NCBI GenBank assembly: GCA_965203855.1
Contig: CBDBDN010000008.1
Span: forward strand, 287,459-351,458
DNA length: 64,000 nucleotides
Source: Dehalococcoidia bacterium
GTDB taxonomy: Bacteria > Chloroflexota > Dehalococcoidia > Lucifugimonadales > UBA3495
Direction: 5' to 3'
In this document: positions 5,901-61,472 of the stretch, in pieces
Layout: each line of letters opens with the position of its first letter
Position numbering within the stretch: position 1 is the stretch's first letter
Translations under genes and position numbers: made by a program
The notes under the pieces: generated by a model
Told to the model about the DNA's origin: nothing
Seen by the model: the letters and a program-made list of their open reading frames with translations, nothing else
Database searches by the model: none

Positions 5901-7436
5901 GTGGCGTCAAATTACGATTACCACCTGGCTATCATCGGCGGCGGCGCGGCCGGCTTGACCGCCGCCCGATTCGCCAACCAACTCGGCAAACGGGTAGCCT
6001 TAATTGAAGCCGCCGGACGCACCGGCGGCGACTGCACCTGGACGGGCTGCGTTCCCAGCAAGGCCCTGCTGCGCGCCGCCCAGGCCGCCGCCGCCGTCCG
6101 GGATGCCCGCCAGTACGGGATTACGGTCGGCGCCGGCGCCGGGAATGCTGCGCCGGCAGTTTCGGCGGACTTTGCAGCGGTGATGCAACGCATCCGGGCG
6201 GTAATCAACCGGATTTACGCCGCCGAATCGCCCGCCGCACTGCGCGCCGCCGGCATTGCTGTTGAGGGCATTGATGTTGAGGGCATTGATGTTATCGATG
6301 GCCGGGCCCAGTTCCAAGATGCGCGCACGCTGGCCGTCGGCGCGCGTGTCATCACCGCCAAAGCTTTCCTGATCTGCGCCGGCGCATCGCCCGTCATCCC
6401 GCCAATACCGGGACTGAACGCAACGCCTTATCTAACTTACGAATCGTTCTGGGAACTGGAAACGCTGCCCCAGCGTCTCGTCATCATCGGCGGCGGGCCG
6501 GTAGGCTGCGAACTGGCGCAAGCCGGCCAGCGGCTCGGCGCCCAGGTTGCCCTCATCGAGGCGCAACCCCGCATCTTGCCTGACGCCGACCCCGACGCGG
6601 CAAAACTGGCAGCCGACGCCTTGCGGAATGACGGAGTTGAACTGCGCTTGTCGGCATCGGTGCAGTCCGTGCGCTTGTCCGATGGCGATGGCGGGCGGCC
6701 AGAGATTGCCGTTGCGACAGCCGACGGCGGCGCTGACGATAGCTATACTGATGATAGTCATAATGACAGCGCCGTAGTCGGCGATGCGCTGCTGATCGCC
6801 GTCGGCCGCCGCCCCAACACCGCCGGGCTGGGCCTGGACGCCGCCGGCGTCGCTTGCGACGCCAACGGCATCATCGTCAACAACTATCTGCGTACCAGCG
6901 TCAGGCATATTTACGCCGCCGGCGACTGCATCAGCGGCGGGCCGCAGTTCACGCATTACGCCGGTTATCAGGGCGCGATGGCCGTCCGCAACGCCCTGCT
7001 GCCGGGCAAAACCCGGGCGCATCGGAACCCGCAGCAAATCCCCTGGGCCGTGTTCACCGACCCGGAAATAGCGCAGGCCGGCTACACGGCAGAGCAAGCG
7101 CAGCCGCGCTACGGCAGCCGGATACGAACCACAACGCTGCCCATGGCATCAATAGATCGGGCGGTAATTGACGGACAAACGACCGGGTTCATCAAGGCCG
7201 TCCATCTCTCCAACGGCCGCATTATAGGCGCAACGATAGTAGGGACACGCGCCGCAGAACTCGCCCAGGAATGGATTATCGCCATTGACCACGGCTTGCG
7301 GCTCAAAGATTTAGCGTCAACGCTCCACCCCTACCCATCGTTGGCAACGGGCAGCCAGCAGCTGGCATGGGAGGCGTACCAGGCCGGGATGACGACGGGC
7401 TGGCGCGGCCGGCTTCTGCGGTGGCTGAGCGGCTAG
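5901..7436 (+). CDS. Pyridine nucleotide-disulfide oxidoreductase (dihydrolipoyl dehydrogenase / mercuric reductase-like)
   Basis: GTG start. FAD fold IIGGGAAG, redox-active CxxxxC in GGDCTWTGCVPSK, second Rossmann IIGGGPVGCE, and a C-terminal dimerisation region. It contains an in-frame 15-nt tandem duplication (6261-6290). Confidence 0.8.
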   Translation: MASNYDYHLAIIGGGAAGLTAARFANQLGKRVALIEAAGRTGGDCTWTGCVPSKALLRAAQAAAAVRDARQYGITVGAGAGNAAPAVSADFAAVMQRIRAVINRIYAAESPAALRAAGIAVEGIDVEGIDVIDGRAQFQDARTLAVGARVITAKAFLICAGASPVIPPIPGLNATPYLTYESFWELETLPQRLVIIGGGPVGCELAQAGQRLGAQVALIEAQPRILPDADPDAAKLAADALRNDGVELRLSASVQSVRLSDGDGGRPEIAVATADGGADDSYTDDSHNDSAVVGDALLIAVGRRPNTAGLGLDAAGVACDANGIIVNNYLRTSVRHIYAAGDCISGGPQFTHYAGYQGAMAVRNALLPGKTRAHRNPQQIPWAVFTDPEIAQAGYTAEQAQPRYGSRIRTTTLPMASIDRAVIDGQTTGFIKAVHLSNGRIIGATIVGTRAAELAQEWIIAIDHGLRLKDLASTLHPYPSLATGSQQLAWEAYQAGMTTGWRGRLLRWLSG

Positions 7437-8491
7437 AGTTCCAGTACGCCGGTACGCAGTATCTGCAAAGTGCCGAGGGGAATATCAGAGCGGAAATCGG
7501 AGCGAATGTCCTGGGGCAAATCGGCATAATTCACCAAGAGCCGATGCGCCAGGTCCTCGGGTCCCCACAACCTGATTTGGAAAAAGGATTGCTGTTCGTT
7601 GCGGTCCTGGACGGGTTTGGTGAATCCGCCCAAGCTAACGATCAAGCCGTGTCGGGCGTTGAATGAGACGATGTTGCCTTGCAGGCTGCTGTATTCAGCA
7701 AGACCTACCGGGCTGGTGCGGCCCTTGACTTGTACGCACAAGCTAGGGGCGTCAAAACCCATATCGCCCTTGCCAGCCAGAACATCGATCCCGCCGTCCG
7801 CGCCCTCGCGGGTTATCCGCACATAGTACCCCAAACTCCGCAGGATGCTGGCTACCAGCTCCTCCAGGCGATGGCCGGCAAATTGGCGACGGAGTCGTGC
7901 GATTATGCGGTCAATGACTTCACGGTCAAGGTCGCTTTCGCTGCCGGAATTCTCGCTTGTGGTTTCCTCTGCGTCGCTAATCTCTTCATCGTCCGGGGTT
8001 CTATACCCGATCTCCAGCGTGTCGGACAGAGTATCTCCCAAATACAAACTGACCGCGTGGCCAATCCGGGTTTCGGCGTCGGGCGCACGGGGCTGAGTGA
8101 GGGTTTGCTGCGCTCCGAATGAATTCAGCAAATCCTGGTTGAAATGAGAGCGGGGGATGTCAGTAACTTGCCACTGGACGGGGCGAACGTGCGGAACGCT
8201 TTGCCCTACCGCATCCGGCTGGTAGGCATAGGCGCCGGTAATACGACCTACGGCGACTTCTCCGGAGCGCTTGCGGGGCAGCACTACCAGATCGTCATTT
8301 TCGATCTCGTGGTAGAAACGCCACAACTGGTCGGCGTCGCTACGCCCTTCGGCGCTGGCGCGCAGGGCCTCGCGGTTGTCGAAGTCGGCTATGCTCTGTT
8401 TCAGACCAAATCCGATGGATACCACTCCCTTTTCCAAAAATGCCCCTTCGTATTCGCCGGCCCTGCCGCCTTTGATTACCCAAACCGCCAT
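7433..8491 (-). CDS. Mrr-type restriction endonuclease with an N-terminal reader-like domain
   Basis: 352 aa. The C-terminal Mrr_cat pattern is GADGGIDVLAGKG...LCVQVKGRTSPVG (D...QxK). The N-terminal ~130 aa (VWVIKGGRAGEYEGAFLEKGVVSIGFG...DDLVVLPRKRSGEVAVGRITG) resembles PUA/EVE-like modules; that part is inference. The 3' end overlaps the convergent gene by 4 nt. Confidence 0.7.
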   Translation of the reverse strand: MAVWVIKGGRAGEYEGAFLEKGVVSIGFGLKQSIADFDNREALRASAEGRSDADQLWRFYHEIENDDLVVLPRKRSGEVAVGRITGAYAYQPDAVGQSVPHVRPVQWQVTDIPRSHFNQDLLNSFGAQQTLTQPRAPDAETRIGHAVSLYLGDTLSDTLEIGYRTPDDEEISDAEETTSENSGSESDLDREVIDRIIARLRRQFAGHRLEELVASILRSLGYYVRITREGADGGIDVLAGKGDMGFDAPSLCVQVKGRTSPVGLAEYSSLQGNIVSFNARHGLIVSLGGFTKPVQDRNEQQSFFQIRLWGPEDLAHRLLVNYADLPQDIRSDFRSDIPLGTLQILRTGVLEL

Positions 8492-11187: not shown

Positions 11188-11796
11188 ATGACCGCCGCCG
11201 CTGCCGACTCTATAACGCCCAACCCCGTAGCGCTGCTGGAACAAACTACCGCCCGCACCAAAGCCATAATCGCCGGCGTCCGCCAGTCGCAGCTGGACGA
11301 CCCCACGCCCTGCGCCCAATGGAATGTGCACGGCCTGCTCAACCATCTGATTGGCGGCCTGGAGTTCACCGCCGCCGGCATCGCCGGCATCCCAACCGCC
11401 ATTCGCCCCAGCGAAGCCGAAAGTTCGCAAATTGACGAGCGCAATATGGACAATCTGGCGCAGGCTTATAATGACCGGCTGGCCCACCTGCTGGCGTTAG
11501 CGGCCGAACCCGGCGCGCTGGAACGAACAGCGCAGACCCCATTCGGCGAAATGCCGGTAAGCCAAATTTTCGTCGGCACCGTAATGGATCAGCTCATCCA
11601 CTGCTGGGATCTGGCCAAAGCCACCGGGCAGGATACGACGCTGGACGCCGATTTAGTGGACTTCGCCTTTCCGATGCTGCAATCCGGGTTTGCCGATATG
11701 GGGCGGCAGGCCGGCTTTATCGGCCCGGAGCAAGCCGTCCCGGACGATGCCAGCCAACTGGACAAACTGATTGCCTACATGGGACGGCAGCCCTAA
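11188..11796 (+). CDS. DinB-fold / TIGR03086-like metal-binding protein (mycothiol maleylpyruvate isomerase N-terminal domain type)
   Basis: 202 aa. The PTPCAQWNVHGLLNHLIGG motif and the length fit this family. Confidence 0.7.
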   Translation: MTAAAADSITPNPVALLEQTTARTKAIIAGVRQSQLDDPTPCAQWNVHGLLNHLIGGLEFTAAGIAGIPTAIRPSEAESSQIDERNMDNLAQAYNDRLAHLLALAAEPGALERTAQTPFGEMPVSQIFVGTVMDQLIHCWDLAKATGQDTTLDADLVDFAFPMLQSGFADMGRQAGFIGPEQAVPDDASQLDKLIAYMGRQP

Positions 11797-15300: not shown

Positions 15301-17058
15301 ATGACAACCGCAATCGGTTCCGCTACGGAACACCCTCTCAACCGCAACCTGTTCATCGCGGACAACCTCAGCCTGCTGCGCCGGCTGGATAACAACAGCA
15401 TTGACCTGATTTGCATTGACCCGCCTTTCGCCAAGAACCAGACTTTCATCGGCAATCTGCGGCCTCCCCTGTCGGCAGAGGAGCAGGCCGGCGAGCAGGC
15501 CATGCTATCCGCCTGGGGCATCAGCAGCGATCGAGATGCCGAAGCCGCCGGCATTTTCTGGCCCAACGGCGGCGATTCGGCCCGCTTCCAGGACATCTGG
15601 CGTTGGGAAAGCGATATTCACGAGGAATGGATTACCGCTATCGACGCCGACCGCACCGGCCTAGCCAAAGTCATCGACGCCACGCGCAACGCCCACAGCG
15701 AACAGCAGGCCGCCTACCTATCCTATATGGCAATCCGTCTGATTGAGATGCGCCGGATTTTGAAACCCACCGGCAGCCTGTATTTCCATTGCGACTTTGA
15801 CGCTAACTCTTATATTCGACTAGCCCTGGACGCCATTTTCGGCCGACAGAATGTCCGCAATGAGATTATCTGGGAACGGCATACTTCAACGCAGCGCGGG
15901 TCGCAGCACCGTCCCCGACGCTGGGGCCGCACTACGGATACCATCCTGTTCTGTTCCAAATCGCAGAATGCCAATTTCAACCCCTTCGTTCCGCCGTCCG
16001 ATACGGATGCAGCGCAGCGGTTCCCCCTAGTCGATGAAAACGGGGAACGCTACTATGATGACAGCGCGCATATCTGGCGCACGCCCGGCATGGGCAGCCG
16101 CCCCAACTTGTGCTACGAATGGCGCGGATTTACGAACCCCACTCCGGCGGGATGGCGTTTGAGCCGGGAACGCCTTGAGGAGGAATACCAGAAAGGCAAC
16201 TTTGTCATCCTGCCCGACGGCCGCCTGCAACGCCGTATGTACCAACGCGACTGGCGCGGCGCAGTGCGCGGCAATCTCTGGAATGATGTGAGCCCGGCGC
16301 TCGGCGGCGAAAGAACCGGCTACCCCACCCAAAAGCCCGTCGCTCTTGCCGAGCGTATCATCCTCGCCAGCACCAGGCCCGGCGATGTCGTGCTGGACTG
16401 CTTCGCCGGCTGCGCTTATGTCCCGGTGGCCGCTGAACGCAATGGCCGCCAGTGGATTGCCTGCGATATATCGCCCCGCGCCCTTACCGTGCTGAAGCGC
16501 CAGTTCGCCAAATTCCGCTACGCGGTGGACGGCGTACAGCAGAGCCAGGCGCCCGCCCTGATTACCGACGCCAATGTCATTACCCGCTCCCCCTTTGACC
16601 TGCCGGAACGCACCGATACCGACCCGGTAGAACGGCGGGACATTGCGGAACTGCCCGAAAGAACCTACAAGGTTCCCGCCAGCATCATCCCGGAAAGGGA
16701 AATGCTGGAATTCCTGCTGGAGCTGTCGGATTACACCGCTTGGTGCTGCGGCTTCGCCAATCGCCGGCCCGACGGCAGCATCATCAGAACTACCCGCAAC
16801 TTTCACCTGGACCACCTTGACCCGAAGTCGTTGCAGGGCAGCAACCAGATTTACAACCGCGCCCCAATGTGTCCGCACCACAACATCCGCAAAAACAACC
16901 GCCGGGTGCATCTGGAGGAATATCGCAAGGAAATCGCCGACGCCGGCGAAATGATGGTTGACACCATAGACGAACTGGTGCATTGGCCGTCAGCATCGGA
17001 TCAGGCGCATCTACGCTGGGCGCAGGCCGTTGCCGCCCCGGCCGCCGGCGGACAATGA
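15301..17058 (+). CDS. Beta-class N6A/N4C DNA methyltransferase fused to a C-terminal HNH nuclease (copy 1)
   Basis: Motif IV comes first (IDLICIDPPFAKN), then SLYFHCD, then motif I (PTQKPVALAERIILASTRPGDVVLDCFAGCAYVPVAA). The C-terminal HNH is HLDHLDPKSLQGSNQIYNRAPMCPHHNIRKNNR. Confidence 0.8.
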   Translation: MTTAIGSATEHPLNRNLFIADNLSLLRRLDNNSIDLICIDPPFAKNQTFIGNLRPPLSAEEQAGEQAMLSAWGISSDRDAEAAGIFWPNGGDSARFQDIWRWESDIHEEWITAIDADRTGLAKVIDATRNAHSEQQAAYLSYMAIRLIEMRRILKPTGSLYFHCDFDANSYIRLALDAIFGRQNVRNEIIWERHTSTQRGSQHRPRRWGRTTDTILFCSKSQNANFNPFVPPSDTDAAQRFPLVDENGERYYDDSAHIWRTPGMGSRPNLCYEWRGFTNPTPAGWRLSRERLEEEYQKGNFVILPDGRLQRRMYQRDWRGAVRGNLWNDVSPALGGERTGYPTQKPVALAERIILASTRPGDVVLDCFAGCAYVPVAAERNGRQWIACDISPRALTVLKRQFAKFRYAVDGVQQSQAPALITDANVITRSPFDLPERTDTDPVERRDIAELPERTYKVPASIIPEREMLEFLLELSDYTAWCCGFANRRPDGSIIRTTRNFHLDHLDPKSLQGSNQIYNRAPMCPHHNIRKNNRRVHLEEYRKEIADAGEMMVDTIDELVHWPSASDQAHLRWAQAVAAPAAGGQ

Positions 17059-37264: not shown

Positions 37265-39482
37265 TTGGGGAGCAGCGCTATGGCCACCGCCACCGTATCG
37301 GATGACCGGAAAGGCACAGATCGGATCGACGCCGACCGGAGAGATGCCGGCGGCGTCAATTGGATACGGGTCGGCATTGAGGCCGGCGTCCTGCTGCTGG
37401 CGGGCATCGGGCTGGCCGCAACATTGGCGCTGGCGCCCGATTTGCGGGAAGGGCTGGCGGCGCTGCTGGGCTACGGCTGGGCGGCGGTTGGCGTATTCGG
37501 CATCGCAACGCTGCTGCTGCTGGCGCGCCGGCCGGCGGCGCTGCTGCGGGGCTGGCGCTGGTGGCTGGCGGCCGGCATCGCAACCGTCGGCGTCATCATT
37601 GCCCTGTCCGTAGTTCCCGGCGCAAACGGCGCGCAGTACGATGGAATGGCCGGGCAAGTGGGCTGGATTATCACCGGCAATATCCCGGTCATCGCCATAA
37701 TTGAGGGGATACTGGGCTTGGCATTGATTGGCCTGCTGGTGCTGCCGGGCGCATCCCGCAAGTATTGGGCAGCGGTGAAGTATTCCGGCATCGGGCTGTG
37801 GAAAGCGCTTTGGGGCGTTGGCATCAGTATCGTTTGGGCAATGCGGATGCTGCTGGCCGCCGTGGTTGCAGTGGGGCGTGGCATCAGGCGGCTGGCCGGG
37901 CGGCGGCGCAGCGCCGGGCCGGCAGATGCGCCGGTTGTCGCAATGCCGCCGGCGGCGGAACCGGATTTTGTGGTGGACGATGCGCCGGCGGCGGCGTACC
38001 CGGAGCCGTCCGCAGCAATGCCGACTCCGCGGTCGGTTAATTCCCGCGGCAACGGCTGGCAGCTGCCGCCCTTGGAGATTCTGGCGCCGGCCGAACCGCA
38101 TCGGATTGACAACGCCGCCATCAGCGCAATGTCCGAGGAAATCAAGGAAGCGTTGGCCGAGCATAATGTCTATGTTGCGGTTGAGGATGTAAAAGCGGGG
38201 CCGCGCGTCATCCGGTTCGGCCTGGTGCCGGGCTATGTGCCGCAGCGGCCGGGCAAGGACGGCGAAGTCGCCAAACAGCGGCCCAGCCGGGTACGGGTCG
38301 GCGACATCGCCAAGCGGCAGAAAGACCTGGCGTTGGCGCTGAAAAGCCCCTATATCCGCATCATCGAGACGCCGGAGCCGGGCGAAGGGCTGGTAGGGCT
38401 GGAAGTGCCCAACCCGTCGCCGGGCAAAGTGCTGATGCGTTCCATTGTGGAGCATCCGGCATTCGGCAAAATCGTCAGCAAGGGCGGGCTGGCCTTTGCG
38501 CTGGGCGAGGACGCCGGCGGCGCGTCGCTGGTACTGGATCTGGCGGCGATGCCGCATATCCTGATTGCCGGGGCTACCGGGTCGGGCAAAAGCGTGTGCA
38601 TCAATTCGCTGGTGGCATCGCTGCTGATGACGCGCCCGCCGGACGAGCTGCGGATGATAATGGTTGACCCGAAGCGGGTAGAACTGACGCCGTTCAACGG
38701 CATACCGCATCTGGTTACGCCGGTCATCGTAGAACCGGACGAAGTGCAGCCGGCTCTGCGGGGACTGATTAACGAGATGACGCGCCGCTACAAGATGATG
38801 GAGGAGCTGGGCGTCCGCAACATAGCCGGCTACAACGGCAAAGCGCCGGAGCCGATGTCGTTCCTGGTGCTGATTGTGGACGAACTGGCTGATTTGATGA
38901 TGACCGGCGGGCTGGAAGTGGAGCAGCAATTGGTGCGGCTGGCGCAGCTGGGCCGGGCCGCCGGCATCCATATGGTGCTGGCGACGCAGCGTCCGTCGGT
39001 GAAAGTAGTAACCGGGCTGCTGAAGGCCAATGTGCCGGCGCGGGTAGCCTTTGCGGTAGCGTCGCAGGTGGACTCGCGGGTGATACTGGATTCCGGCGGG
39101 GCCCGAAGGATTGATGGGCAAAGGGGACTTGCTGCTGCTGAACAACGACTTTCCGAAAGCGCGGCGCGGGCAGGGTACGCTGGTCTATGACGAGGAAATG
39201 GATGCGCTGATTGACTTCTGGCGCAACCAGCAAGGCCCGCCGCTGCCGCGCATCAGCCTGGATGACGCTGACGAACCGTCCGGCGGTGAATCCGGCGGGT
39301 CGGACGGCGGCGGCGGCGATGACGCTTACGGCGGCAACATCCTGGACCAGGCGCGCGAGCTGGCGCTGCGGAACCCCCGCCTCACTTCGGCAATGGTGGA
39401 ACGGCGGTTTAAGATACGCAAATCGCAGGCGGACGAGGTTATAGAGGAGCTGCGGGATGAGGGGCTGGTGATTGGGGGGTGA
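37265..39482 (+). pseudogene. ftsK: DNA translocase FtsK/SpoIIIE, disrupted as sequenced by a +1 frameshift near 39101-39104
   Basis: N-terminal TM helices, Walker A GATGSGKS, and LVLIVDELADLMM. The frame changes between ILDSGGA (ORF 37265..39190) and GLMGKGDLLLL...gamma domain (ORF 39111..39482). Deleting one C of GCCCG restores DSGGAEGLMGKGDLL. Confidence 0.85.
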
Positions 39483-39682
39483 TGGCGGCAAAACGCGCGC
39501 GGCGCATTAGCGCAAAGGGGCGCCGGCATCTGCCGGCGCCCCTCTTATTTTCGGCACGGTTGGCCGACGCCGGCGCAATAATGACCGCTGCGTCTTGCCC
39601 GCCGCATTCGCCAACTGCTAGACTGCCGCACCGATTGACTGGCCGCTTGCCGCCCGGCCTAACTGATAAGCCGCCGCCCGGT

Positions 39683-41182
39683 ATGGAGATGCCCCCGATG
39701 CCCAGCGCTTGCAATGTACCGAGCCGCACCATCTTTACCGGCGATAATCTGGACATCCTCCGGGGCATCAATTCGGAGTGCGTTGACCTGATTTATCTGG
39801 ATCCGCCGTTCAATTCCAACCGCAGCTATGCCGCCCCGTTGGACAGCGAAGCGCGCGGCGCCGAATTCGACGACGTCTGGACGCTCAGCGATATGAAAGA
39901 GGAGTGGGTTGACGAAATTGAGTACCGCCGTCCGTCGCTGTATCACCTGATTAACGGGGCGAAACTGGCGCACAGCGAAAGCATGGCCGGCTACCTGACT
40001 TTTATGAGTGTGCGGTTGCTGGAGCTGCATCGCATCCTGAAACCGGCGGGGAGCATTTACCTGCATTGCGACCCTACGGCGTCGCATTATCTGAAAGGCA
40101 TTATGGACGCCTTGTTTGCGCCCGATAATTTCCAGAATGAGATCGTCTGGAAACGAACCGGATCGCATGGCGGCGCCCGACGGTGGGGTCCGATCCACGA
40201 TGTACTCCTGTTCTATTCCGGGTCGGGGCGGCATCTCTGGAATCGGGTCTATCAGCCGTACTCTGACGATTATCTCAGGAATTACTACCGTTACGAGGAT
40301 AAACGCGGTCGGTATCGACTGGTGACGCTCACCGGCGCCGGAACCACATCAGGCGATTCGGGCGCTGAATGGCGCGGCGTCAATCCCACTGATTCGGGCC
40401 GGCATTGGGCGGTGCCGCGCCAGGCTCTTGCCGAAGCCTATCCCAACCGCAGCGATTTGGACCGGCTTACTACGCAGGAGAAACTTGACCTGCTGGATCA
40501 AGCCGGGCTAGTGTACTGGCCGCCGCGCGGGCGCATCCCGCAGCAGAAGCGTTATGCCGATCAAGGCGCCGGCGTTCCGATACAGGATATAGTCACCGAC
40601 ATCGGGCCGATTGGTTCTCATGCTCTGGAACGGACGGAATGGCGCACCCAAAAACCGCTAGCCTTATTGGAGCGCATCATCGGCGCATCGTCTAATCCCG
40701 GCGATTTGGTGCTGGATCCGTTTTGCGGCTGCGCTACCGCTTGCATCGCCGCCGAAAAACTGCATCGCCAATGGATTGGCATTGATATTCTGCCGCAGGC
40801 GGCGGCAGTGCTCAACGACCGCGCCAAACGCGAGTTGCAGATACCGATGAACGGGGACGATGAACCGGAGTGGGCGGACTGGAGCCCGCTGATAATGCAG
40901 GAACCGCCCAAGCGTACCGATCTTGCGCTGTCCGCCCCCGTCAATCCGCAATCCGACCGGGAACTGCTGTACGCCAGCCAGGATCGCCGCTGCGCCGGCT
41001 GCCGCTATGAACTGCCGCTGCACGTGCTTACCATTGACCACATTCATCCGCAGTCGCTGGGCGGCGTGGATACTTTGGGCAACTTGCAGCTGATGTGCCA
41101 TACCTGCAACGCCATCAAGGGCAACCGCAGCATGGAATACCTGCGGGAACAGTTGCACCGGCGGGGGATATTGGCGATGTGA
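39683..41182 (+). CDS. Beta-class N6A/N4C DNA methyltransferase fused to a C-terminal HNH nuclease (copy 2)
   Basis: VDLIYLDPPFNSN, SIYLHCD, TQKPLALLERIIGASSNPGDLVLDPFCGCATACIAA. The HNH region is CAGCRYELPLHVLTIDHIHPQSLGGVDTLGNLQLMCHTCNAIKGNR. I prefer the start at M69 of track ORF 39479. Confidence 0.8.
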   Translation: MEMPPMPSACNVPSRTIFTGDNLDILRGINSECVDLIYLDPPFNSNRSYAAPLDSEARGAEFDDVWTLSDMKEEWVDEIEYRRPSLYHLINGAKLAHSESMAGYLTFMSVRLLELHRILKPAGSIYLHCDPTASHYLKGIMDALFAPDNFQNEIVWKRTGSHGGARRWGPIHDVLLFYSGSGRHLWNRVYQPYSDDYLRNYYRYEDKRGRYRLVTLTGAGTTSGDSGAEWRGVNPTDSGRHWAVPRQALAEAYPNRSDLDRLTTQEKLDLLDQAGLVYWPPRGRIPQQKRYADQGAGVPIQDIVTDIGPIGSHALERTEWRTQKPLALLERIIGASSNPGDLVLDPFCGCATACIAAEKLHRQWIGIDILPQAAAVLNDRAKRELQIPMNGDDEPEWADWSPLIMQEPPKRTDLALSAPVNPQSDRELLYASQDRRCAGCRYELPLHVLTIDHIHPQSLGGVDTLGNLQLMCHTCNAIKGNRSMEYLREQLHRRGILAM

Positions 41183-41201: not shown

Positions 41202-42353
41202 TTACAGCAGCGGCATCTGAAAGGCGCGGTCGGCGGCGGCGGCGTTTTGCCCCAGATGGATGGCGGCATAACCCAGCTGCCGCAGCCGTTCCGCTAAGTC
41301 GGGAAAGCCAAAGACGGTAAAAACTCTGCGGGGTTGGACGGACTCGACATAGGCGAGCAGATCGTTAAAATCGGCGTGGTCGCTATAAGGTATGCTGGCG
41401 TCGCCGGGCCGGCCGCCGCCCCAGGGTCGCCGCCCCTTGCCGGCGGCCCACCCGGTCATTTCCAGATAACGCACCGGGCGTTGGTCGGGGCGGTTGGCGG
41501 CGATGTACTCCCGGCTCTTGCGGCCGGGCGCAAACAGCAGAACTTCGTCATCGGCAACGCCGTTTCCGTCATGGATGCGATAATCGCCGGGGAACCGGAC
41601 GCCGGCGTCCTCATACCGACGCGCTACATCGTAAATCTCGGCGGCGCAGGCAACCCGGAAACCGGCCGCCAGCAGGTGATACAACGCTTCCTGCGCCTTG
41701 CCCAGCCGCCAGCCCAGCGTTACCGGCAGAGCGCCCTGTTGCAGCCACTGCCGGATGACCCGCACTGCGTTGGCTACCGCTTCCTCCTGCGGCGGGAAAG
41801 TATATTCCGGCTTGCCGTAGGTGGCTTCAATTACCAGCGTATCGCAGGCCACCGGTTCCAGATGCCGGTTGATGGGCGAGGGCTGGGCGCGGAAATCGCC
41901 GGTGTAGAGCAGGCGATGCCCGTCCGACTGCCTGGTAACCAGCGTTTGCGCCGAGCCGAGGCAATGCCCGGCGGGGTGCAGCGTGATGGCGTAATGCGGG
42001 GTTTCCAGCGGCTCCCCGTATTCCAGAGGGACGCACTCCGAGCGGCGCAGATAGTCCCGCAGCAGCAGCTCCGTGCCGGGCGTGAGGACGGTACGGCGAT
42101 GGCGCGCTATATGGTCGGAATGGGCATGGGATATGACCGAAAAGTCCTGCTTACGCAGCGCGTCCAGCCAGAGCTCCAGTTCCGGCAGATAGATGCCGCG
42201 GTCAAAAACAACTTCCACTTTAATGGCCGCATTCCGTTTTAATGGTTGAATTCCGTAGCCGGGAAGGTCAAATCCGCCGCCGAGTATAGCACGCCGTCGG
42301 GTCGGTTTTAGGCTATAATGCGGCAAATCCCGCCGGGCGGGCGCCGGGTTCAA
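41202..42353 (-). CDS. MBL-fold beta-CASP-like exonuclease (resembles ligase-associated DNA damage response exonuclease)
   Basis: VISHAHSDHIARH, ITLHPAGHCLGSAQTLV, YTGDFRAQPS, LVIEATYGKPEYTFPP, LGKAQEALYHLL. No ligase gene is adjacent. Confidence 0.6.
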   Translation of the reverse strand: MNPAPARRDLPHYSLKPTRRRAILGGGFDLPGYGIQPLKRNAAIKVEVVFDRGIYLPELELWLDALRKQDFSVISHAHSDHIARHRRTVLTPGTELLLRDYLRRSECVPLEYGEPLETPHYAITLHPAGHCLGSAQTLVTRQSDGHRLLYTGDFRAQPSPINRHLEPVACDTLVIEATYGKPEYTFPPQEEAVANAVRVIRQWLQQGALPVTLGWRLGKAQEALYHLLAAGFRVACAAEIYDVARRYEDAGVRFPGDYRIHDGNGVADDEVLLFAPGRKSREYIAANRPDQRPVRYLEMTGWAAGKGRRPWGGGRPGDASIPYSDHADFNDLLAYVESVQPRRVFTVFGFPDLAERLRQLGYAAIHLGQNAAAADRAFQMPLL

Positions 42354-42388
42354 CCGGCGTTCCCGGTCGGCGTTTTGAGGAGAATACG

Positions 42389-42853
42389 ATGCCCGGCCAG
42401 ATTGGCGACATCGCCGCCGATTTCACTCTGCCGTCGCCGCATCACGGCGACATCACGCTCAGCAGCTATCGCGGCAGCCATGCTGTTGTCCTGTCCTTCC
42501 ATGTGCTGGACTTTACCGGCGGTTGAACCGACCAGGCTACCTCGTTCCGCCGCTATAACGCGCAGTTCGAGGAACAGAATGCCCAGGTGCTGGGCATCAG
42601 CTGTGACCATGTTGCCGCACACCGCGCCTGGACTACCGCAATGGGCGGCCTGCCCTACCCGGAGCTGTCGGACTGGCACCCCAAAGGCCGGGTTACGGAG
42701 GCTTATGACCTCTGGAACGAGGAACGCGGCGCCGGCACCAGAGCGGTAGTCATCGTTGACCGGGCGGGCGTGATTCGCTACCGGCAAACCTATCAGCCCG
42801 GCACTTTGCCCGACCCGGCTGAAATACTCCAGGCAGTAGCAGCACTCAACTAA
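42389..42853 (+). CDS. Peroxiredoxin (BCP/PrxQ-like) with an in-frame TGA at the peroxidatic Cys position: selenocysteine candidate
   Basis: GAGGAG SD, then MPGQIGDIAADFTLPSPHHGDITLSSYRGSHAVVLSFHVLDFTGG[TGA 42524-42526]TDQATSFRRYNAQFEEQNAQVLGISCDHVAAHRAW...LSDWHPKG. The TGA aligns with the C of the Prx motif DxTPxCTxE. The track shows only the 3' fragment 42587..42853. Confidence 0.65.
42540..42572 (+). promoter_or_regulatory. Candidate SECIS-like stem-loop downstream of the in-frame TGA
   Basis: CCUCG (42540-42544) pairs with CGAGG (42568-42572). Inner pairs are G49-C63, C50-G62, G52-C61 and C53-G60, with apical loop UAUAAC about 27 nt after the UGA. Hand-folded and not validated. The loop lacks the G that is often seen. 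Confidence 0.25.
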
Positions 42854-42900
42854 CGGGATTCGCCGGCCCCGAAATCCGAAACCGAACCCTGTATGGCGGC

Positions 42901-42926
42901 GGCCCGACTGATTTGCCAGTCGGGCC
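42901..42926. terminator. Bidirectional hairpin terminator candidate
   Basis: GGCCCGACTG-ATTTGC-CAGTCGGGCC, a perfect 10-bp stem between convergent prx and the greA-like gene. Confidence 0.5.
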
Positions 42927-42948
42927 GTTGCCTTCCTGCCGCAGTTGC

Positions 42949-43764
42949 TTACCCGCCAATGCCGTCAATGCGGTATTGGACGGAGCCGCGCGGGGTGCTG
43001 ATCGTTACCTGCTCGCCGGCGGTTTTCCCCATCAGAGCCTGGCCGATGGGGGAGACGGTGGATATTTTGCCGGCGCCGGCGTCTGCTTCGCGGACGTCCA
43101 CCAGCGTAAAGATGCGCTGCTGCTGCCGTTCCAAGTCGTGGAGCGTAACCCGAGAGCCGATGCTGACGCGCTCGGTATCCCGGTTGGCGTTCACTATTTC
43201 AACCCGCGCCAGGTCGTTCTCCAATTGCCGGATGCGGCGTTCTACCAGCTGCTGCTGCTCACGGGCGGCGTCCAGCGGGGCGTTTTCCCTGATGTCGCCG
43301 TCGCTGCGGGCCAGCCGCACGGCTTCCCGGATGCGGGGCATTTCGTCGTGCAGCCGTTGCAGCTCGGCCTGTAGTTCGTCATGGCGTTCCTGGCTCAAAC
43401 GCGCAGTAGGGGAACTGCCGCCGGAACCGGTCAGGCCGACCGCGGATGCCCGCCGTCGTTGCCGGCGCGGCGCGGCGGCATAGCGCGCCAGGCTGATTGC
43501 GGTCAATTTGCGGCGGTTGGCAAAGGTAAGGAACTTTTTCACCGGATCCAGGCGAGTGGCGGCGTCCTCAACATTCTCGGTAGTCCACTTGGCGTATTCG
43601 CCGACATCAATGGCGTGCAGCTCGGCAATCGGCTTGTCGCGCCCGATGCGCGCCTGGAACCGCAAAAGTTCCTGCTGTCCCGGTATCAGCTGCTTGCTGT
43701 CCCTCAAATGCTCAACAAACAGGTCAATGGCTTGCGCGATGGAAATGTCGTGGCTGTTGGTCAA
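42949..43764 (-). CDS. GreA-family transcript cleavage factor with a ~120-aa N-terminal extension
   Basis: The C-terminal ~150 aa form a complete GreA: LQAELQRLHDEMPRIREAVRLARSDGDIRENAPLDAAREQQ, then GSRVTL...VDVREADAGAGKISTVSPIGQALMGK. I do not recognise the N-terminal domain with confidence. Confidence 0.7.
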   Translation of the reverse strand: MTNSHDISIAQAIDLFVEHLRDSKQLIPGQQELLRFQARIGRDKPIAELHAIDVGEYAKWTTENVEDAATRLDPVKKFLTFANRRKLTAISLARYAAAPRRQRRRASAVGLTGSGGSSPTARLSQERHDELQAELQRLHDEMPRIREAVRLARSDGDIRENAPLDAAREQQQLVERRIRQLENDLARVEIVNANRDTERVSIGSRVTLHDLERQQQRIFTLVDVREADAGAGKISTVSPIGQALMGKTAGEQVTISTPRGSVQYRIDGIGG

Positions 43765-45994: not shown

Positions 45995-46017
45995 CTGAAT
46001 TGAATGGAGGATTCGTA

Positions 46018-46830
46018 ATGACCAGCAGGCCGCACGGCATAGATGGATGGGGCTTTCCCAATCAGGAATATGCGCCGGAGCCGAAACTGCTCACCGCGCC
46101 CCCGGACAGCGCGCTGGTAGTTACGCCGCATCCCGATGACGCCGAGGGCGGATGCGGCGCTACGATGGCGAAATGGATTGCCGAAGCGGGCACCCGCGTC
46201 GTCATACTGATGTCCACCAACGGCAATAAAGGCACGGGCGACCGCTCTTACACGCCGGAGTCGCTGGCGGCAACGCGTGAGGTTGAGCAGCAGAACGCCG
46301 CCGCCGTGCTGGGCGTGTCCGAAGTGGTATTCCTGCGTCATGGCGACGGCGAGCTGGAGGATACCTACGCTTACCGGGGCGAAGTAGTGCGGCAGATCCG
46401 GCGGCATCGCCCGGAAGTGATTTTCGGCATTGACCCCTATCGCGTTACTTCACACACGCACCGCGACCATCGCCACAGCGGGCAGGCGGCCCTGGACGCC
46501 GCCTTTTCCTACGCCTGGAGCCGGCTGGATTTCCCGGAGCAGATTGAGGATGAGGGACTGCAACCCCATCGCGTCCGGGAAGCGCTGCTGTGGGGTTCGG
46601 AGCGCCCCGATGCGTTTGTTGAGATAACCGAGCATCACATTAGGGCCAAAGCCGCCGCATTGGGCGAACACGCTTCGCAAGTCAGCGCCCGCACTGCGGC
46701 CCAGCGTCTGGAACGGATGACGGAAGGCTGCCGACAGCAGGGCGCGCGCTGCGGCGTCCCCTATGCGGAGGGGTTCCGCCGCATTGAGTTCAACCTGGGC
46801 AGCGACGAATGGTGGCTGCTGAATCGGTAG
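46018..46830 (+). CDS. PIG-L/LmbE family deacetylase
   Basis: LVVTPHPDDAEGGCGATMAKW and HRDHRHSGQA. GGAGGA lies before the ATG at 46018. Confidence 0.8.
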   Translation: MTSRPHGIDGWGFPNQEYAPEPKLLTAPPDSALVVTPHPDDAEGGCGATMAKWIAEAGTRVVILMSTNGNKGTGDRSYTPESLAATREVEQQNAAAVLGVSEVVFLRHGDGELEDTYAYRGEVVRQIRRHRPEVIFGIDPYRVTSHTHRDHRHSGQAALDAAFSYAWSRLDFPEQIEDEGLQPHRVREALLWGSERPDAFVEITEHHIRAKAAALGEHASQVSARTAAQRLERMTEGCRQQGARCGVPYAEGFRRIEFNLGSDEWWLLNR

Positions 46831-58622: not shown

Positions 58623-58802
58623 AAAATAAACTACCCAATTGGAAACATTGCCGGGATGCCGCCGGCCGGTTGCCCATTGCGGCGTCTTGCCCTAAACTTA
58701 CGCTGGACGGATTGGCGACGGGATGGAGTCGATTCCATCTCGCCGCAAGTCGGCATCACGCCGCAGCGCGAACACAAACTTATCGCAACAGGAGGCTTGC
58801 CG

Positions 58803-60129
58803 ATGCCCCTGCCAACGCCATTGCAAGGTATCCGCGTCGTTGATTTCACCTGGGTGCGAGCCGGCCCCTGGGCCGCCCGCTGGATGGGCACCCTGGGCGC
58901 CGATGTCATCAAAGTGGAATGGCCGCTGAACCTGGACACCCTCCGCCAGAACCGCTTTACGGTGCCGCCCGGCGTCGAGCCCGGCCCCAATTCTACCGGC
59001 CAGTTCGCCGACACCAACGCCAACAAGCGCGGCATCAGCGTCAACACCCGCACCGCCGCCGGCCTGGAGCTGGTCAAACGGCTGATTTCGGTGTCCGACA
59101 TCGTCATTGAGAACTTCAGCAGCCGCATTATGCGCCGCTGGGGGCTGGGCTATGACGAGCTGCGGAAAATCCGCCCCGACATTATCTATGTCTCTATGGC
59201 CGGTTTCGGGCAGACGGGACGGCATCACTGGTACGGCACGATGGGGCCGGCGGCGCAGGCGTTGAGCGGCCTTACCCATCTGTCCGGGCTGCCCGGCAAG
59301 CCGCCGGCCGGCTGGGGTTGGTCTTACCTGGACGATACCGGCGGAATGTACGGCGCAATGTGCGCGCTGACCGCCCTGCGCCACCGCTCGGCCACCGGCC
59401 AGGGGCAGCACGTCGACCTGTCGCAGATGATTACCGGCATCACGCTTACCGGCCCGGCGCTGCTGGACAAAACCGTCAACGGGCGGGCGGCGCGCCGGGA
59501 AGGTTTCCCGCCGGGCAACCCGCACCGTGTGGCCCGGCGCTGAGGTAGTCAACAACTATCGCGGCCCCATCGCCGCGCCGCACAACGCTTATCGCACCGC
59601 GCCCGGCGGCTACAACGACTGGATTGTCATTGCCTGCCTCTCCGACGACGAATGGCTGAACCTGCGCGGCCTGATGGGCCGTCCCGCCTGGGCCGACGCG
59701 CGGTTTGACACTATCGCCGGGCGGCTGGAGCATCAGGACGAAATGGACGCCGGCATCGAGGAATGGACGCTAACTCTGGACAAGTACGAACTTACCAAAC
59801 GGTGCCAGATGTGCGAAATCCGGGCGATGGCGGTGCAAAGCAGCCAGGATCGGGTAGATAACGACCCCCAACTGCGCCATCGCGAAATGTATGTTCCGAT
59901 GGAGCATCCCATGCTGGGCCCCTGGAAGTTCCAGAACGCCCCGTTCCAGATGTCCAAATCGCCGGCCCGTATGTCCGGCCCGCCGCCAATGATTGGGCAG
60001 CACAACCGGGAAGTGCTGGAGGATTTGCTGGGCGTAACCCACGACGATCTGTTGGACGGCTACGAAAACGGCGTTTTCTGGCCCAACACAATGGACAAGT
60101 TCCCCTATATTGAGGAGGCGCTGGTATGA
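58803..60129 (+). pseudogene. Family III CoA-transferase (CaiB/BaiF), disrupted as sequenced by a +1 frameshift near 59519-59521
   Basis: AGGAGG SD, then MPLPTPLQGIRVVDFTWVRAGPWAARWMGTLGADVIKVE. The frame changes between ...REGFPPGN (ORF 58656..59543) and TVWPGAEVVNNYRGPIAAPHNAY (ORF 59527..60129). Deleting one C of AACCCG restores the family GNR motif (PPGNRTVWPG). Confidence 0.8.
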
Positions 60130-61472
60130 CAACTGCCGCCAACAATGGCATTAACAGCGCCGGCGCCGCCGGCCAACTGCCGGAGGACGGAGTTGACCGC
60201 GGCGGCGCGCGTCCCGCCGATTACAGCCGCCCCGGGCCGCTCAACGGGCTGCGCGTCCTGGAAATCTGCGACGAAAAAGGCCAGTTCTGCGGCAAGCTGC
60301 TGGCCGACCTGGGTGCCGACCTCATCAAAATTGAACCGCCCGGCGGCGAACCCTGCCGCAGTTTCGGCCCCTTCCTGGACGACATCCCCCACCGGGAGCG
60401 CAGCCTCTCGTTCTGGCACTACAACACCTCCAAGCGGGGCATTACGCTGAACCTGGAAACGACGCAAGGGCAGGACATAATGCGCCGCCTGGCGGCCACT
60501 GCGGACATCGTGCTGGAAAGCCGGCCGCCCGGCTATCTGGAGTCGCTGAGGCTGGACTACGCGCCGCTCTCCGCCGACCACCCCGGCCTGATTATGTGCT
60601 CGTTGACGCCATACGGACAGACCGGCCCCTGGCGCGACTACATCAGCAGCGACATTACGCAGCTGGCCGGCGGCGGGCAGATGGCGTCGTCGGGCTACGA
60701 CGAAATTGATGTCCCCAATGCGCCGCCCATTGCGCCCGGCGGCGGCAACGCCTGGCACATCGGCGCCCATTACGCCTACATCGGAATGATGGCCGCGCTG
60801 CACTACCGCTTTCTGTCCGGCGCGGGCCAGTACATTGACGCATCCATCCATGAGGCGTGCGCCTTGACTACCGAAGGCGCCATCGCTATTTATCTGTCCA
60901 CCGGGGAAGTAGTGCAGCGGCACACCGGACGCCACGCCGCCCCCGATATGTCGCCGGCCATCCAGTTCCCCACCGGAGACGGCGGCTGGCTGAACACCAC
61001 CCGTTCCGGCACCAACCTGACGCCGCAGCGTCTCAAGATGCTGGCCGAATGGTTTGAACAGTCGGGAATGGCCGACGACCTTGCCGATGCGCGCTACCAG
61101 AATCCGGAAGTCATCGCCGCCGAAAACGACCACATCGTCCAGGTGATGAAAGACTTCTTTATGAGTTCCACGCTGGATGACGCCTTTCACGGCGGCCAGC
61201 AGCGTGATTTCCCATGGGGCGCCATTCGCAGTATGGACGAAATCGTCGGGGATGCCCACCTGCAAGACCGGGGATTCTTTACGGAAGTAGCCCATCCCGA
61301 ACTGGGGCGGACTTTCACCTACCCCGGCGGCGCCGCCATCTACAACGGGTCGCCCTGGCGCATCAGCCGCCGCGCCCCCCTGATTGGCGAACACAACACG
61401 GAGATACTGCAAGGCGAGCTGGGCCTGACCAACGGCGCAATGCTCCTGCTGGCCGAGGGCGGGGTGATTTAG
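60126..61472 (+). CDS. Family III CoA-transferase (CaiB/BaiF), paralog
   Basis: LNGLRVLEICDEKGQFCGKLLADLGADLIKIEPPGG, 448 aa. It overlaps the upstream stop (ATGA). Confidence 0.8.
   Translation: MTTAANNGINSAGAAGQLPEDGVDRGGARPADYSRPGPLNGLRVLEICDEKGQFCGKLLADLGADLIKIEPPGGEPCRSFGPFLDDIPHRERSLSFWHYNTSKRGITLNLETTQGQDIMRRLAATADIVLESRPPGYLESLRLDYAPLSADHPGLIMCSLTPYGQTGPWRDYISSDITQLAGGGQMASSGYDEIDVPNAPPIAPGGGNAWHIGAHYAYIGMMAALHYRFLSGAGQYIDASIHEACALTTEGAIAIYLSTGEVVQRHTGRHAAPDMSPAIQFPTGDGGWLNTTRSGTNLTPQRLKMLAEWFEQSGMADDLADARYQNPEVIAAENDHIVQVMKDFFMSSTLDDAFHGGQQRDFPWGAIRSMDEIVGDAHLQDRGFFTEVAHPELGRTFTYPGGAAIYNGSPWRISRRAPLIGEHNTEILQGELGLTNGAMLLLAEGGVI

Follow-up and report, generated by a model that had tools for sequence, protein, structure and literature searches.

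When a frame that reads as a complete peroxiredoxin (Prx) contains a single TGA exactly where its catalytic cysteine should be, is the gene broken, wrongly sequenced, or does it encode selenocysteine (Sec)? This question is raised by a locus, here called prx, in a 64,000-nucleotide stretch of DNA (the window) from a Dehalococcoidia bacterium of the order Lucifugimonadales (assembly GCA_965203855.1, contig CBDBDN010000008.1, positions 287,459 to 351,458 of the forward strand). Our analysis indicates that prx is very probably an intact gene for a 154-residue AhpE-like Prx in which Sec (U46) replaces the peroxidatic Cys. A candidate Sec peroxiredoxin had been proposed in a preliminary description made from the letters alone, and the proposal was borne out: UGA was found in 85/85 species, with purifying selection on both sides of the codon, Cys-containing homologs and a covarying stem-loop.

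The coding sequence lies at 42389..42853 on the plus strand and has 154 codons, with an ATG start, UGA46 read as Sec and a TAA stop at 42851-42853. A Shine-Dalgarno-like GAGGAG, read directly from the sequence, occupies 42377..42382 (+), 6 nt 5' of the ATG. Re-reading and translation of the window reproduced this motif, the start at 42389, the length and the stop as originally described. One in-frame TGA interrupts the frame, codon 46 (42524..42526, +), in the context HVLDFTGG-TGA-TDQATSF. This codon, the predicted Sec at the peroxidatic (C_P) position of the motif T43-G-G-U46, had been placed at the catalytic Cys, and it does align with Cys45 of Mycobacterium tuberculosis AhpE. The gene is missed by the calling of open reading frames (ORFs), as had also been noted: for prx the mechanical list holds the 3' fragment 42587..42853, an out-of-frame ORF (42318..42749) and nothing else. 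A scan of the 64-kb window for further genes with an in-frame TGA gave no second credible candidate.

Conservation of the codon was surveyed with one genome per species, which yielded 80 loci all matching residues 1-154; they came mostly from Dehalococcoidia, SAR202 and Chloroflexota metagenome-assembled genomes (MAGs), many of them from sponges, together with two Entotheonella. Codon 46 was TGA in 80/80 of the surveyed species, and the frame was otherwise open on both sides. A search seeded with the Cys homolog P0012 returned five Prx loci from further species of a more distant subclade, and five of five also had TGA at codon 46 with both halves intact, giving 85/85 in total. Because the TGA is shared by 85/85 related species genomes, it is far beyond chance; looking for it in related genomes had been suggested as a check, and there it was.

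Selection on the protein was measured against the species sequences. The ratio of nonsynonymous to synonymous differences per site (pN/pS) was 0.215 for codons 1-45 (pS ~0.70) and 0.161 for codons 47-150 (pS ~0.66), and on both sides of the UGA the alignment columns varied at ~96% of third codon positions compared with ~40% of second positions. The low pN/pS and the third-position variation on both sides therefore indicate that both halves are translated in-frame and selected as protein. On these aligned sequences, the UGA has outlasted near-saturating synonymous divergence. Three independent metagenome assemblies (different samples, near-identical strains L095-L097) all keep the TGA: two differ from the window gene by 4 substitutions, all synonymous, and the third by 13, of which 11 are synonymous.

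These data bear on two simple explanations. According to the first, which had been put forward as the alternative to a selenoprotein, prx is a pseudogene, formerly a Cys-peroxiredoxin, that was inactivated in the source genome by a nonsense mutation from TGY to TGA. Only one base separates TGC or TGT from TGA, Cys-form homologs exist and the window holds no sel genes, but the idea was refuted by TGA at codon 46 in 85/85 species with frames otherwise undisrupted and by purifying selection on both sides of the UGA with synonymous sites near saturation; strain-level variants, moreover, are almost all synonymous. We consider a pseudogene extremely improbable. According to the second, sequencing or assembly wrongly gave an A in the TGA where C or T should stand. 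A homolog with TTA on a 696-bp contig (L091) is evidence that the Sec codon can be hit by single-base variants or errors, and nothing more specific favors this explanation; TGA is present in the three independent contigs from different samples and in 85 other genomes, so that the probability of an error is vanishingly small.

In the exceptional gene (L091:104-565, product P0001), alone among the homologs, TTA (Leu) takes the place of the Sec codon; apart from that codon its product equals the product of the TGA-bearing L061 gene. The TTA reflects either a mistake in sequencing or assembly or a variant that inactivates the gene.

Entries in the protein database were then compared with the DNA. 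Among the best 120 matches to the prx product, 105 were not full length; nearly all of these were fragments of 87-127 residues from the region 3' of the UGA, and two (P0020 and P0109) were frame-disrupted calls. Gene callers that read a Sec codon as a stop would leave just such 3' fragments. At the critical column, eight of the 15 full-length matches had W, six had C and one had L, and a check of the DNA showed that the 'W' form P0004 has TGA, the six C forms have TGC or TGT, and the 'L' form has TTA. Cys homologs at the UGA column (P0008, P0011-13, P0081 and P0118) provide the Sec/Cys pair, and alignment with Cys-containing homologs, another suggested check, confirmed the column through the TGC/TGT homologs and Cys45 of AhpE. 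One of the Cys forms, P0008 (TGC; L087:3001-3462, ENA ERZ23496604 scaffold_106), retains the same prx-greA synteny, and L087 may represent a recent Sec-to-Cys conversion with a fossil selenocysteine insertion sequence (SECIS).

Public gene calls for the prx family go wrong systematically, giving 87-104-aa 3' fragments, pairs of 45 aa and 70 aa, or full-length proteins with Trp at the Sec codon; positions 3412-3876 of L095 and L096, for example, are annotated as a 45-aa and a 70-aa ORF. Taken literally, the pairs in L095 and L096 and the 87-104-aa fragments would match a locus in which translation really stops at UGA46 and there are two products, an N-terminal peptide of 45 residues and a C-terminal fragment with its own internal start. 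Neither fragment, however, has a complete thioredoxin fold, the catalytic residue is in neither of them, and both parts together align gap-free to full-length AhpE. There is no conserved internal start, because the annotated starts vary (70, 87-94 or 103-104 aa). Two separate products are thus very improbable.

UGA is otherwise a stop codon in this genome. It ends about 19 of the 55 genes of the window, including ones with products that match a Pfam profile end to end, and a general reassignment of UGA was rejected because the codon terminates many well-supported window genes. Taken together, the species survey, the selection data, the independent assemblies and the use of UGA as a stop exclude the pseudogene, sequencing-error and code-reassignment explanations.

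To which Prx subfamily does the product belong? With Cys substituted at the stop, the protein matched the Pfam AhpC-TSA profile PF00578 (E 5.5e-33, 114 bits, cutoff 26) over profile positions 1-123 of 124, and it also matched Redoxin. The closest solved protein was M. tuberculosis AhpE (Rv2238c, a 1-Cys Prx; E 2.4e-28, residues 5-153). In the search of solved structures, AhpE entries ranged from E 2.4e-28 to 3e-26, the next subfamily followed at 4e-16 and BCP at ~1e-9. The alignment with AhpE paired the UGA with Cys45, Thr43 with Thr42 and Arg118 with Arg116. For P0008, the closest Cys-containing ortholog (62% identical), an AlphaFold model had a predicted local distance difference test (pLDDT) score of 89.4 and placed the catalytic residue in the first turn of helix alpha2; the top 11 Foldseek matches of this model were all AhpE chains, with template-modelling (TM) scores of 0.92-0.93. 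No NCBIfam equivalog among the Bcp, PrxQ, PrxU and Prx-SUH models was reached by prx. Based on the structure-search ranking, the AhpE alignment, the fold match and the failure to reach any equivalog cutoff, prx is an AhpE-like Prx, neither BCP/PrxQ nor a PrxU ortholog.

The preliminary description had read the frame as a complete BCP/PrxQ-type peroxiredoxin. Its completeness stands, as PF00578 is matched end to end; the subfamily label does not, the structure-search ranking being that of an AhpE-like protein. A BCP/PrxQ label was rejected on the scores of NF006960 (Bcp, 46.5 bits against a cutoff of 140) and NF053650 (PrxQ, 43.5 against 260), and Prx-SUH on that of NF045827 (27.8 bits against 298). 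PrxU, which had been cited as an example, was likewise rejected as an ortholog (NF040737, 55.2 bits against an equivalog cutoff of 270), and serves as a precedent in principle only.

Several residues of the active site can be located in the gene. The Thr43 codon of the TxxU motif lies at 42515..42517 (+), and the sequence FT that includes this residue was seen in 85/85 Sec-form translations. The codon for Arg118, the conserved active-site arginine of peroxiredoxins, lies at 42740..42742 (+); its column is nearly invariant among the aligned homologs, and the counterpart in AhpE was altered in the R116A mutant (4xih). Cys72 (codon 42602..42604, +, in GISCD) is a candidate resolving cysteine that may form a selenenylsulfide. 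It is kept in 80/85 Sec forms, and in the P0008 model it comes immediately after strand beta4. Since five Sec forms (L081-L085), like AhpE, have Val at this position, Cys72 is non-essential. His38 (42500-42502), the residue before Val39, is the same as that in the engineered F37H mutant of AhpE (PDB 5C04, the top PDB match).

If UGA46 is recoded, the mRNA should carry a bacterial SECIS (bSECIS) downstream of it. The 90 nt from the UGA were aligned without gaps for 81 sequences and analyzed with RNAalifold and explicit pair counting, and two hairpins were found. The first, H1 (42540..42572, +; alignment columns 17-49), is the most likely SECIS element. It consists of a lower stem CCUCG/CGAGG, a UU/UU internal loop, an upper stem and the apical loop UAUAAC; the UGA and the loop are 27 nt apart. 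In the window, H1 is the minimum free energy (MFE) structure (-12.7 kcal/mol, z -2.76). H1 is the stem-loop that had earlier been drawn by hand; RNA folding downstream of the UGA, itself a suggested check, recovered the drawn stem as the MFE structure, and the alignment added covariation. Compensatory changes occurred at columns 18/48 (CG<->UA, 15 sequences), 27/39 (CG<->GC 25, AU 3), 21/45 and 28/38. At column 27, a synonymous third position within an Arg codon, the changes are matched by those at the third base of a variable codon.

The second hairpin, H2 (42579..42597, +; alignment columns 56-74), has an 8-bp stem, AUGCCCAG/CUGGGCAU, and the loop GUG. It overlaps the codons for N-A-Q-V-L-G-I and has an MFE of -12.3 kcal/mol (z -3.08) in the window. 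Across 70 distinct sequences, 100% of its cells were paired, and columns 58/72 and 63/67 covaried. In the covariation shuffle test, 0/500 shuffles reached the observed value, and sliding the partners by 1-3 columns lowered pairing from 85% to 27-45%. Pairing also exceeded a synonymous null in which each protein sequence was kept and synonymous codons were resampled: H1 had 8.49 pairs against 6.28 expected (of 11), and H2 had 7.99 against 5.96 expected (of 8). These results show conserved RNA pairing downstream of the UGA.

In the published bSECIS model, the loop has 3-9 nt with a G in its first two, the upper stem has 4-16 bp, the UGA-to-loop distance is 16-37 nt and the MFE is <= -7.5 (PMC13188914). 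H1 resembles this consensus (PMC13188914 Fig. 2) in its spacing of 25-27 nt, its loop size and its MFE of -8.5 to -20 kcal/mol. The spacing had been described as usual for a bSECIS and the loop as a non-canonical UAUAAC; the spacing does fall within the range and the loop is as stated, but it departs from the loop-G rule. About 13% of bacterial selenoprotein genes in BSepDB are without a canonical SECIS, so the non-canonical loop of H1 is not exceptional. No relevant Rfam family was found in 42380-42960, either at the gathering threshold or at E<=10.

The Cys forms served as a control for the hairpins, a thin one of only six sequences. They retained 8, 4, 5, 4, 6 and 7 of the 11 pairs of H1 and 8, 7, 7, 6, 8 and 7 of the 8 pairs of H2, the closest Cys form, L087, having 8/11 and 8/8. 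H1 has thus decayed in most Cys forms and is kept in the closest, and H2 is largely kept regardless. From its position and its looser retention in Cys forms, H1 is likely the SECIS, albeit one whose loop is non-canonical. H2 is conserved as an mRNA structure, and its role in Sec insertion is uncertain. A two-hairpin SECIS in the Dehalococcoidia/Entotheonella Prx family, with H1 as spacer and H2 as the SelB site or with both needed, is a tentative and rather unlikely arrangement; in it, H1 may be a structured spacer at the mRNA entrance that mostly does without the SelB-contacting loop G. If it were true, bacterial SECIS elements would include a class that does not obey the 16-37-nt consensus.

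Several observations weigh against Sec at codon 46 and have to be set beside this evidence. The genes selA, selB and selD and that for tRNA-Sec are all missing from the 64-kb window. The otherwise universal Pro of the peroxiredoxin PxxxTxxC motif is replaced by Val39 (42503-42505) throughout the clade, in Sec and Cys forms alike. Unlike the bSECIS consensus, H1 has the loop G in only 17-18/70 distinct members, the window not among them; H2 fits through its GUN loop, present in all members, and its 8-bp stem, but lies 59-60 nt from the UGA, out of range. H2, and less so H1, persist in some Cys forms, so neither is strictly Sec-specific. Finally, Sec insertion, the hairpin that would bind SelB, the substrate and the reductant are all inferred.

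For the machinery, published genomes offer a wider view. ARAGORN found no tRNA-Sec in the window or in 60 related loci, the sole tRNA of the window being Ser-GCU. For the SAR202 bins bin87 and bin22, 3 and 2 SelA, 1 and 1 SelB, and 1 and 1 SelD have been reported (Slaby et al. 2017, PMC5649159 Table S4), and these bins are the genomes of L029 (MPNC01) and L074 (MPMM01), both of which carry the TGA ortholog. BSepDB lists Dehalococcoidia MAGs with 46-49 selenoprotein genes (PMC13326102).

A further rival is read-through of the UGA as another amino acid, either Cys, through Sec machinery charged with sulfur, or Trp, through near-cognate decoding, which would give a thiol enzyme or an inactive one. 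In other systems, limiting selenium is known to lead to Cys being inserted at Sec codons. The presence of selenium in the prx product is read from the sequence alone, and the hairpins are imperfect with respect to the canonical SECIS model. Yet a genome that needed only Cys would use TGY, as the Cys-form homologs do, and the keeping of the UGA with its downstream structure in 85 species implies a benefit specific to recoding. SelA, SelB and SelD are reported in carrier genomes, Trp at the catalytic position would abolish activity, and UGA is a genuine stop in the source genome. We therefore judge read-through as Cys or Trp improbable and retain Sec as the residue encoded at codon 46.

How, then, might the protein be made and work? 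With UGA46 in the ribosomal A site, the stem-loop just outside the mRNA entry channel would recruit SelB-GTP-Sec-tRNA(Sec), and Sec would be inserted in place of termination. The recruiting stem-loop is likely H1 (42540-42572), and H2 (42579-42597) may assist. In the folded enzyme, Thr43 and Arg118 would position and activate the U46 selenolate where helix alpha2 begins, and the selenolate would attack the hydroperoxide, yielding a selenenic acid. Reduction of this acid could involve a selenenylsulfide to Cys72, or a redoxin or low-molecular-weight thiol could act on it directly. The translation step proposed here follows what is known of bacterial Sec insertion, and the chemistry follows that of the Prx family.

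In its genomic context, prx stands alone. It is divergent from a gene of the beta-CASP/metallo-beta-lactamase (MBL) type (41202-42353, -) and convergent with greA (42949-43764, -). Of the related loci, 77 have greA as the convergent neighbor and 54 have the MBL gene upstream. The region between prx and greA contains a perfect 16-bp GC-rich hairpin (42895..42932; MFE -35.3 kcal/mol, z -7.05), likely a bidirectional transcription terminator without a T-run. Consensus scans for terminators and promoters around prx called nothing, the hairpin at 42895-42932 included.

Some other features of the window were recorded. A DNA methylase-HNH nuclease fusion (39479-41182, +) lies between ftsK and the MBL gene, and tblastn gave 0 matches to it in all related loci. 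In the near-identical strains L095-L097, small DUF433 genes (in one strain also a PIN-type gene) adjoin the MBL gene instead, and the site beside the MBL gene seems to be a slot in which strains carry different defence or toxin-antitoxin genes. The window also has a second methylase (15301-17058) and an Mrr-type endonuclease (7433-8491, -). At 46000-46830 (+), 3 kb 3' of prx, is a PIG-L deacetylase most like the bacillithiol enzyme BshB1 (95.7 bits, below the cutoff of 182.5), and at 11188-11796 (+) a protein of the TIGR03086/mycothiol-dependent-enzyme family (142 bits, above cutoff). Together they give a hint of a low-molecular-weight thiol system that might recycle an AhpE-like enzyme. A family-III coenzyme A (CoA)-transferase is split over overlapping ORFs in different frames (58656-60129, +), with 58656-59543 covering profile positions 1-221 and 59527-60129 positions 222-366; an intact paralog follows at 60126-61472. 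A frameshift, decay into a pseudogene or faulty assembly could account for the split.

What do these results add to existing knowledge? The Prx family (PF00578, TxxU) is an established prokaryotic selenoprotein family (PMC13188914, PMC2398784); TxxU Sec peroxiredoxins have figured in catalogues since 2005-2008 and occur commonly in metagenomes from the sea, with 253 Prx selenoproteins, sixth by sequence number, in the GOS marine data (catalogues PMC1794560, PMC2398784, PMC9312934, PMC13188914). Dehalococcoidia are likewise already listed among selenoprotein-rich bacteria. Among the papers listed by a literature search on AhpE and selenocysteine, no title or abstract describes a Sec-containing AhpE-type enzyme. 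The AhpE-like assignment, the replacement of Pro by Val and the peculiarities of the SECIS are modest additions to the known Prx (TxxU) family. The results indicate that a Sec form of the AhpE-type branch of Prx is widespread among Dehalococcoidia/SAR202 of sponges and the sea. Practically, prx should be annotated as one 154-residue selenoprotein, a gene that public calls split or truncate almost everywhere. Because the hairpin at the canonical position usually lacks the loop G, the 85-species alignment also offers a clean test set for bacterial SECIS elements.

Compared with known systems, prx agrees with the catalogued Prx TxxU family (Zhang & Gladyshev) in being an AhpC/TSA protein with Sec predicted at the peroxidatic position, the motif T-x-x-U and many Cys homologs. 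It differs in being closest to AhpE, whereas the catalogued example belongs to COG1225 (Bcp); in having Val where the catalogued PxxxTxxU motif has Pro; and in its RNA, as the downstream hairpin of the window gene and of ~75% of its family departs from the loop-G rule of the consensus bSECIS. M. tuberculosis AhpE (PDB 1XXU, 1XVW, 4X0X, 5C04) is of nearly equal length (153 vs 154 aa) and collinear over residues 5-153, and the model of the Cys ortholog P0008 superposes on it with a TM score of 0.92 and a root-mean-square deviation of 1.5-1.8 A, with the Thr, C_P and Arg equivalent. Unlike prx, at ~36% identity, AhpE has Cys45 in place of UGA/Sec46, Phe37 and Pro38 in place of the His38 and Val39 of the prx family, and Val in place of the usual Cys72; its reductant is mycoredoxin/mycothiol, which is not established for Dehalococcoidia. 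PrxU of Eubacterium (Peptoclostridium) acidaminophilum belongs to another subfamily and is longer (the NF040737 profile has 233 positions), but it is alike in principle, having Sec as the peroxidatic residue, which in PrxU was shown experimentally (Sohling et al. 2001).

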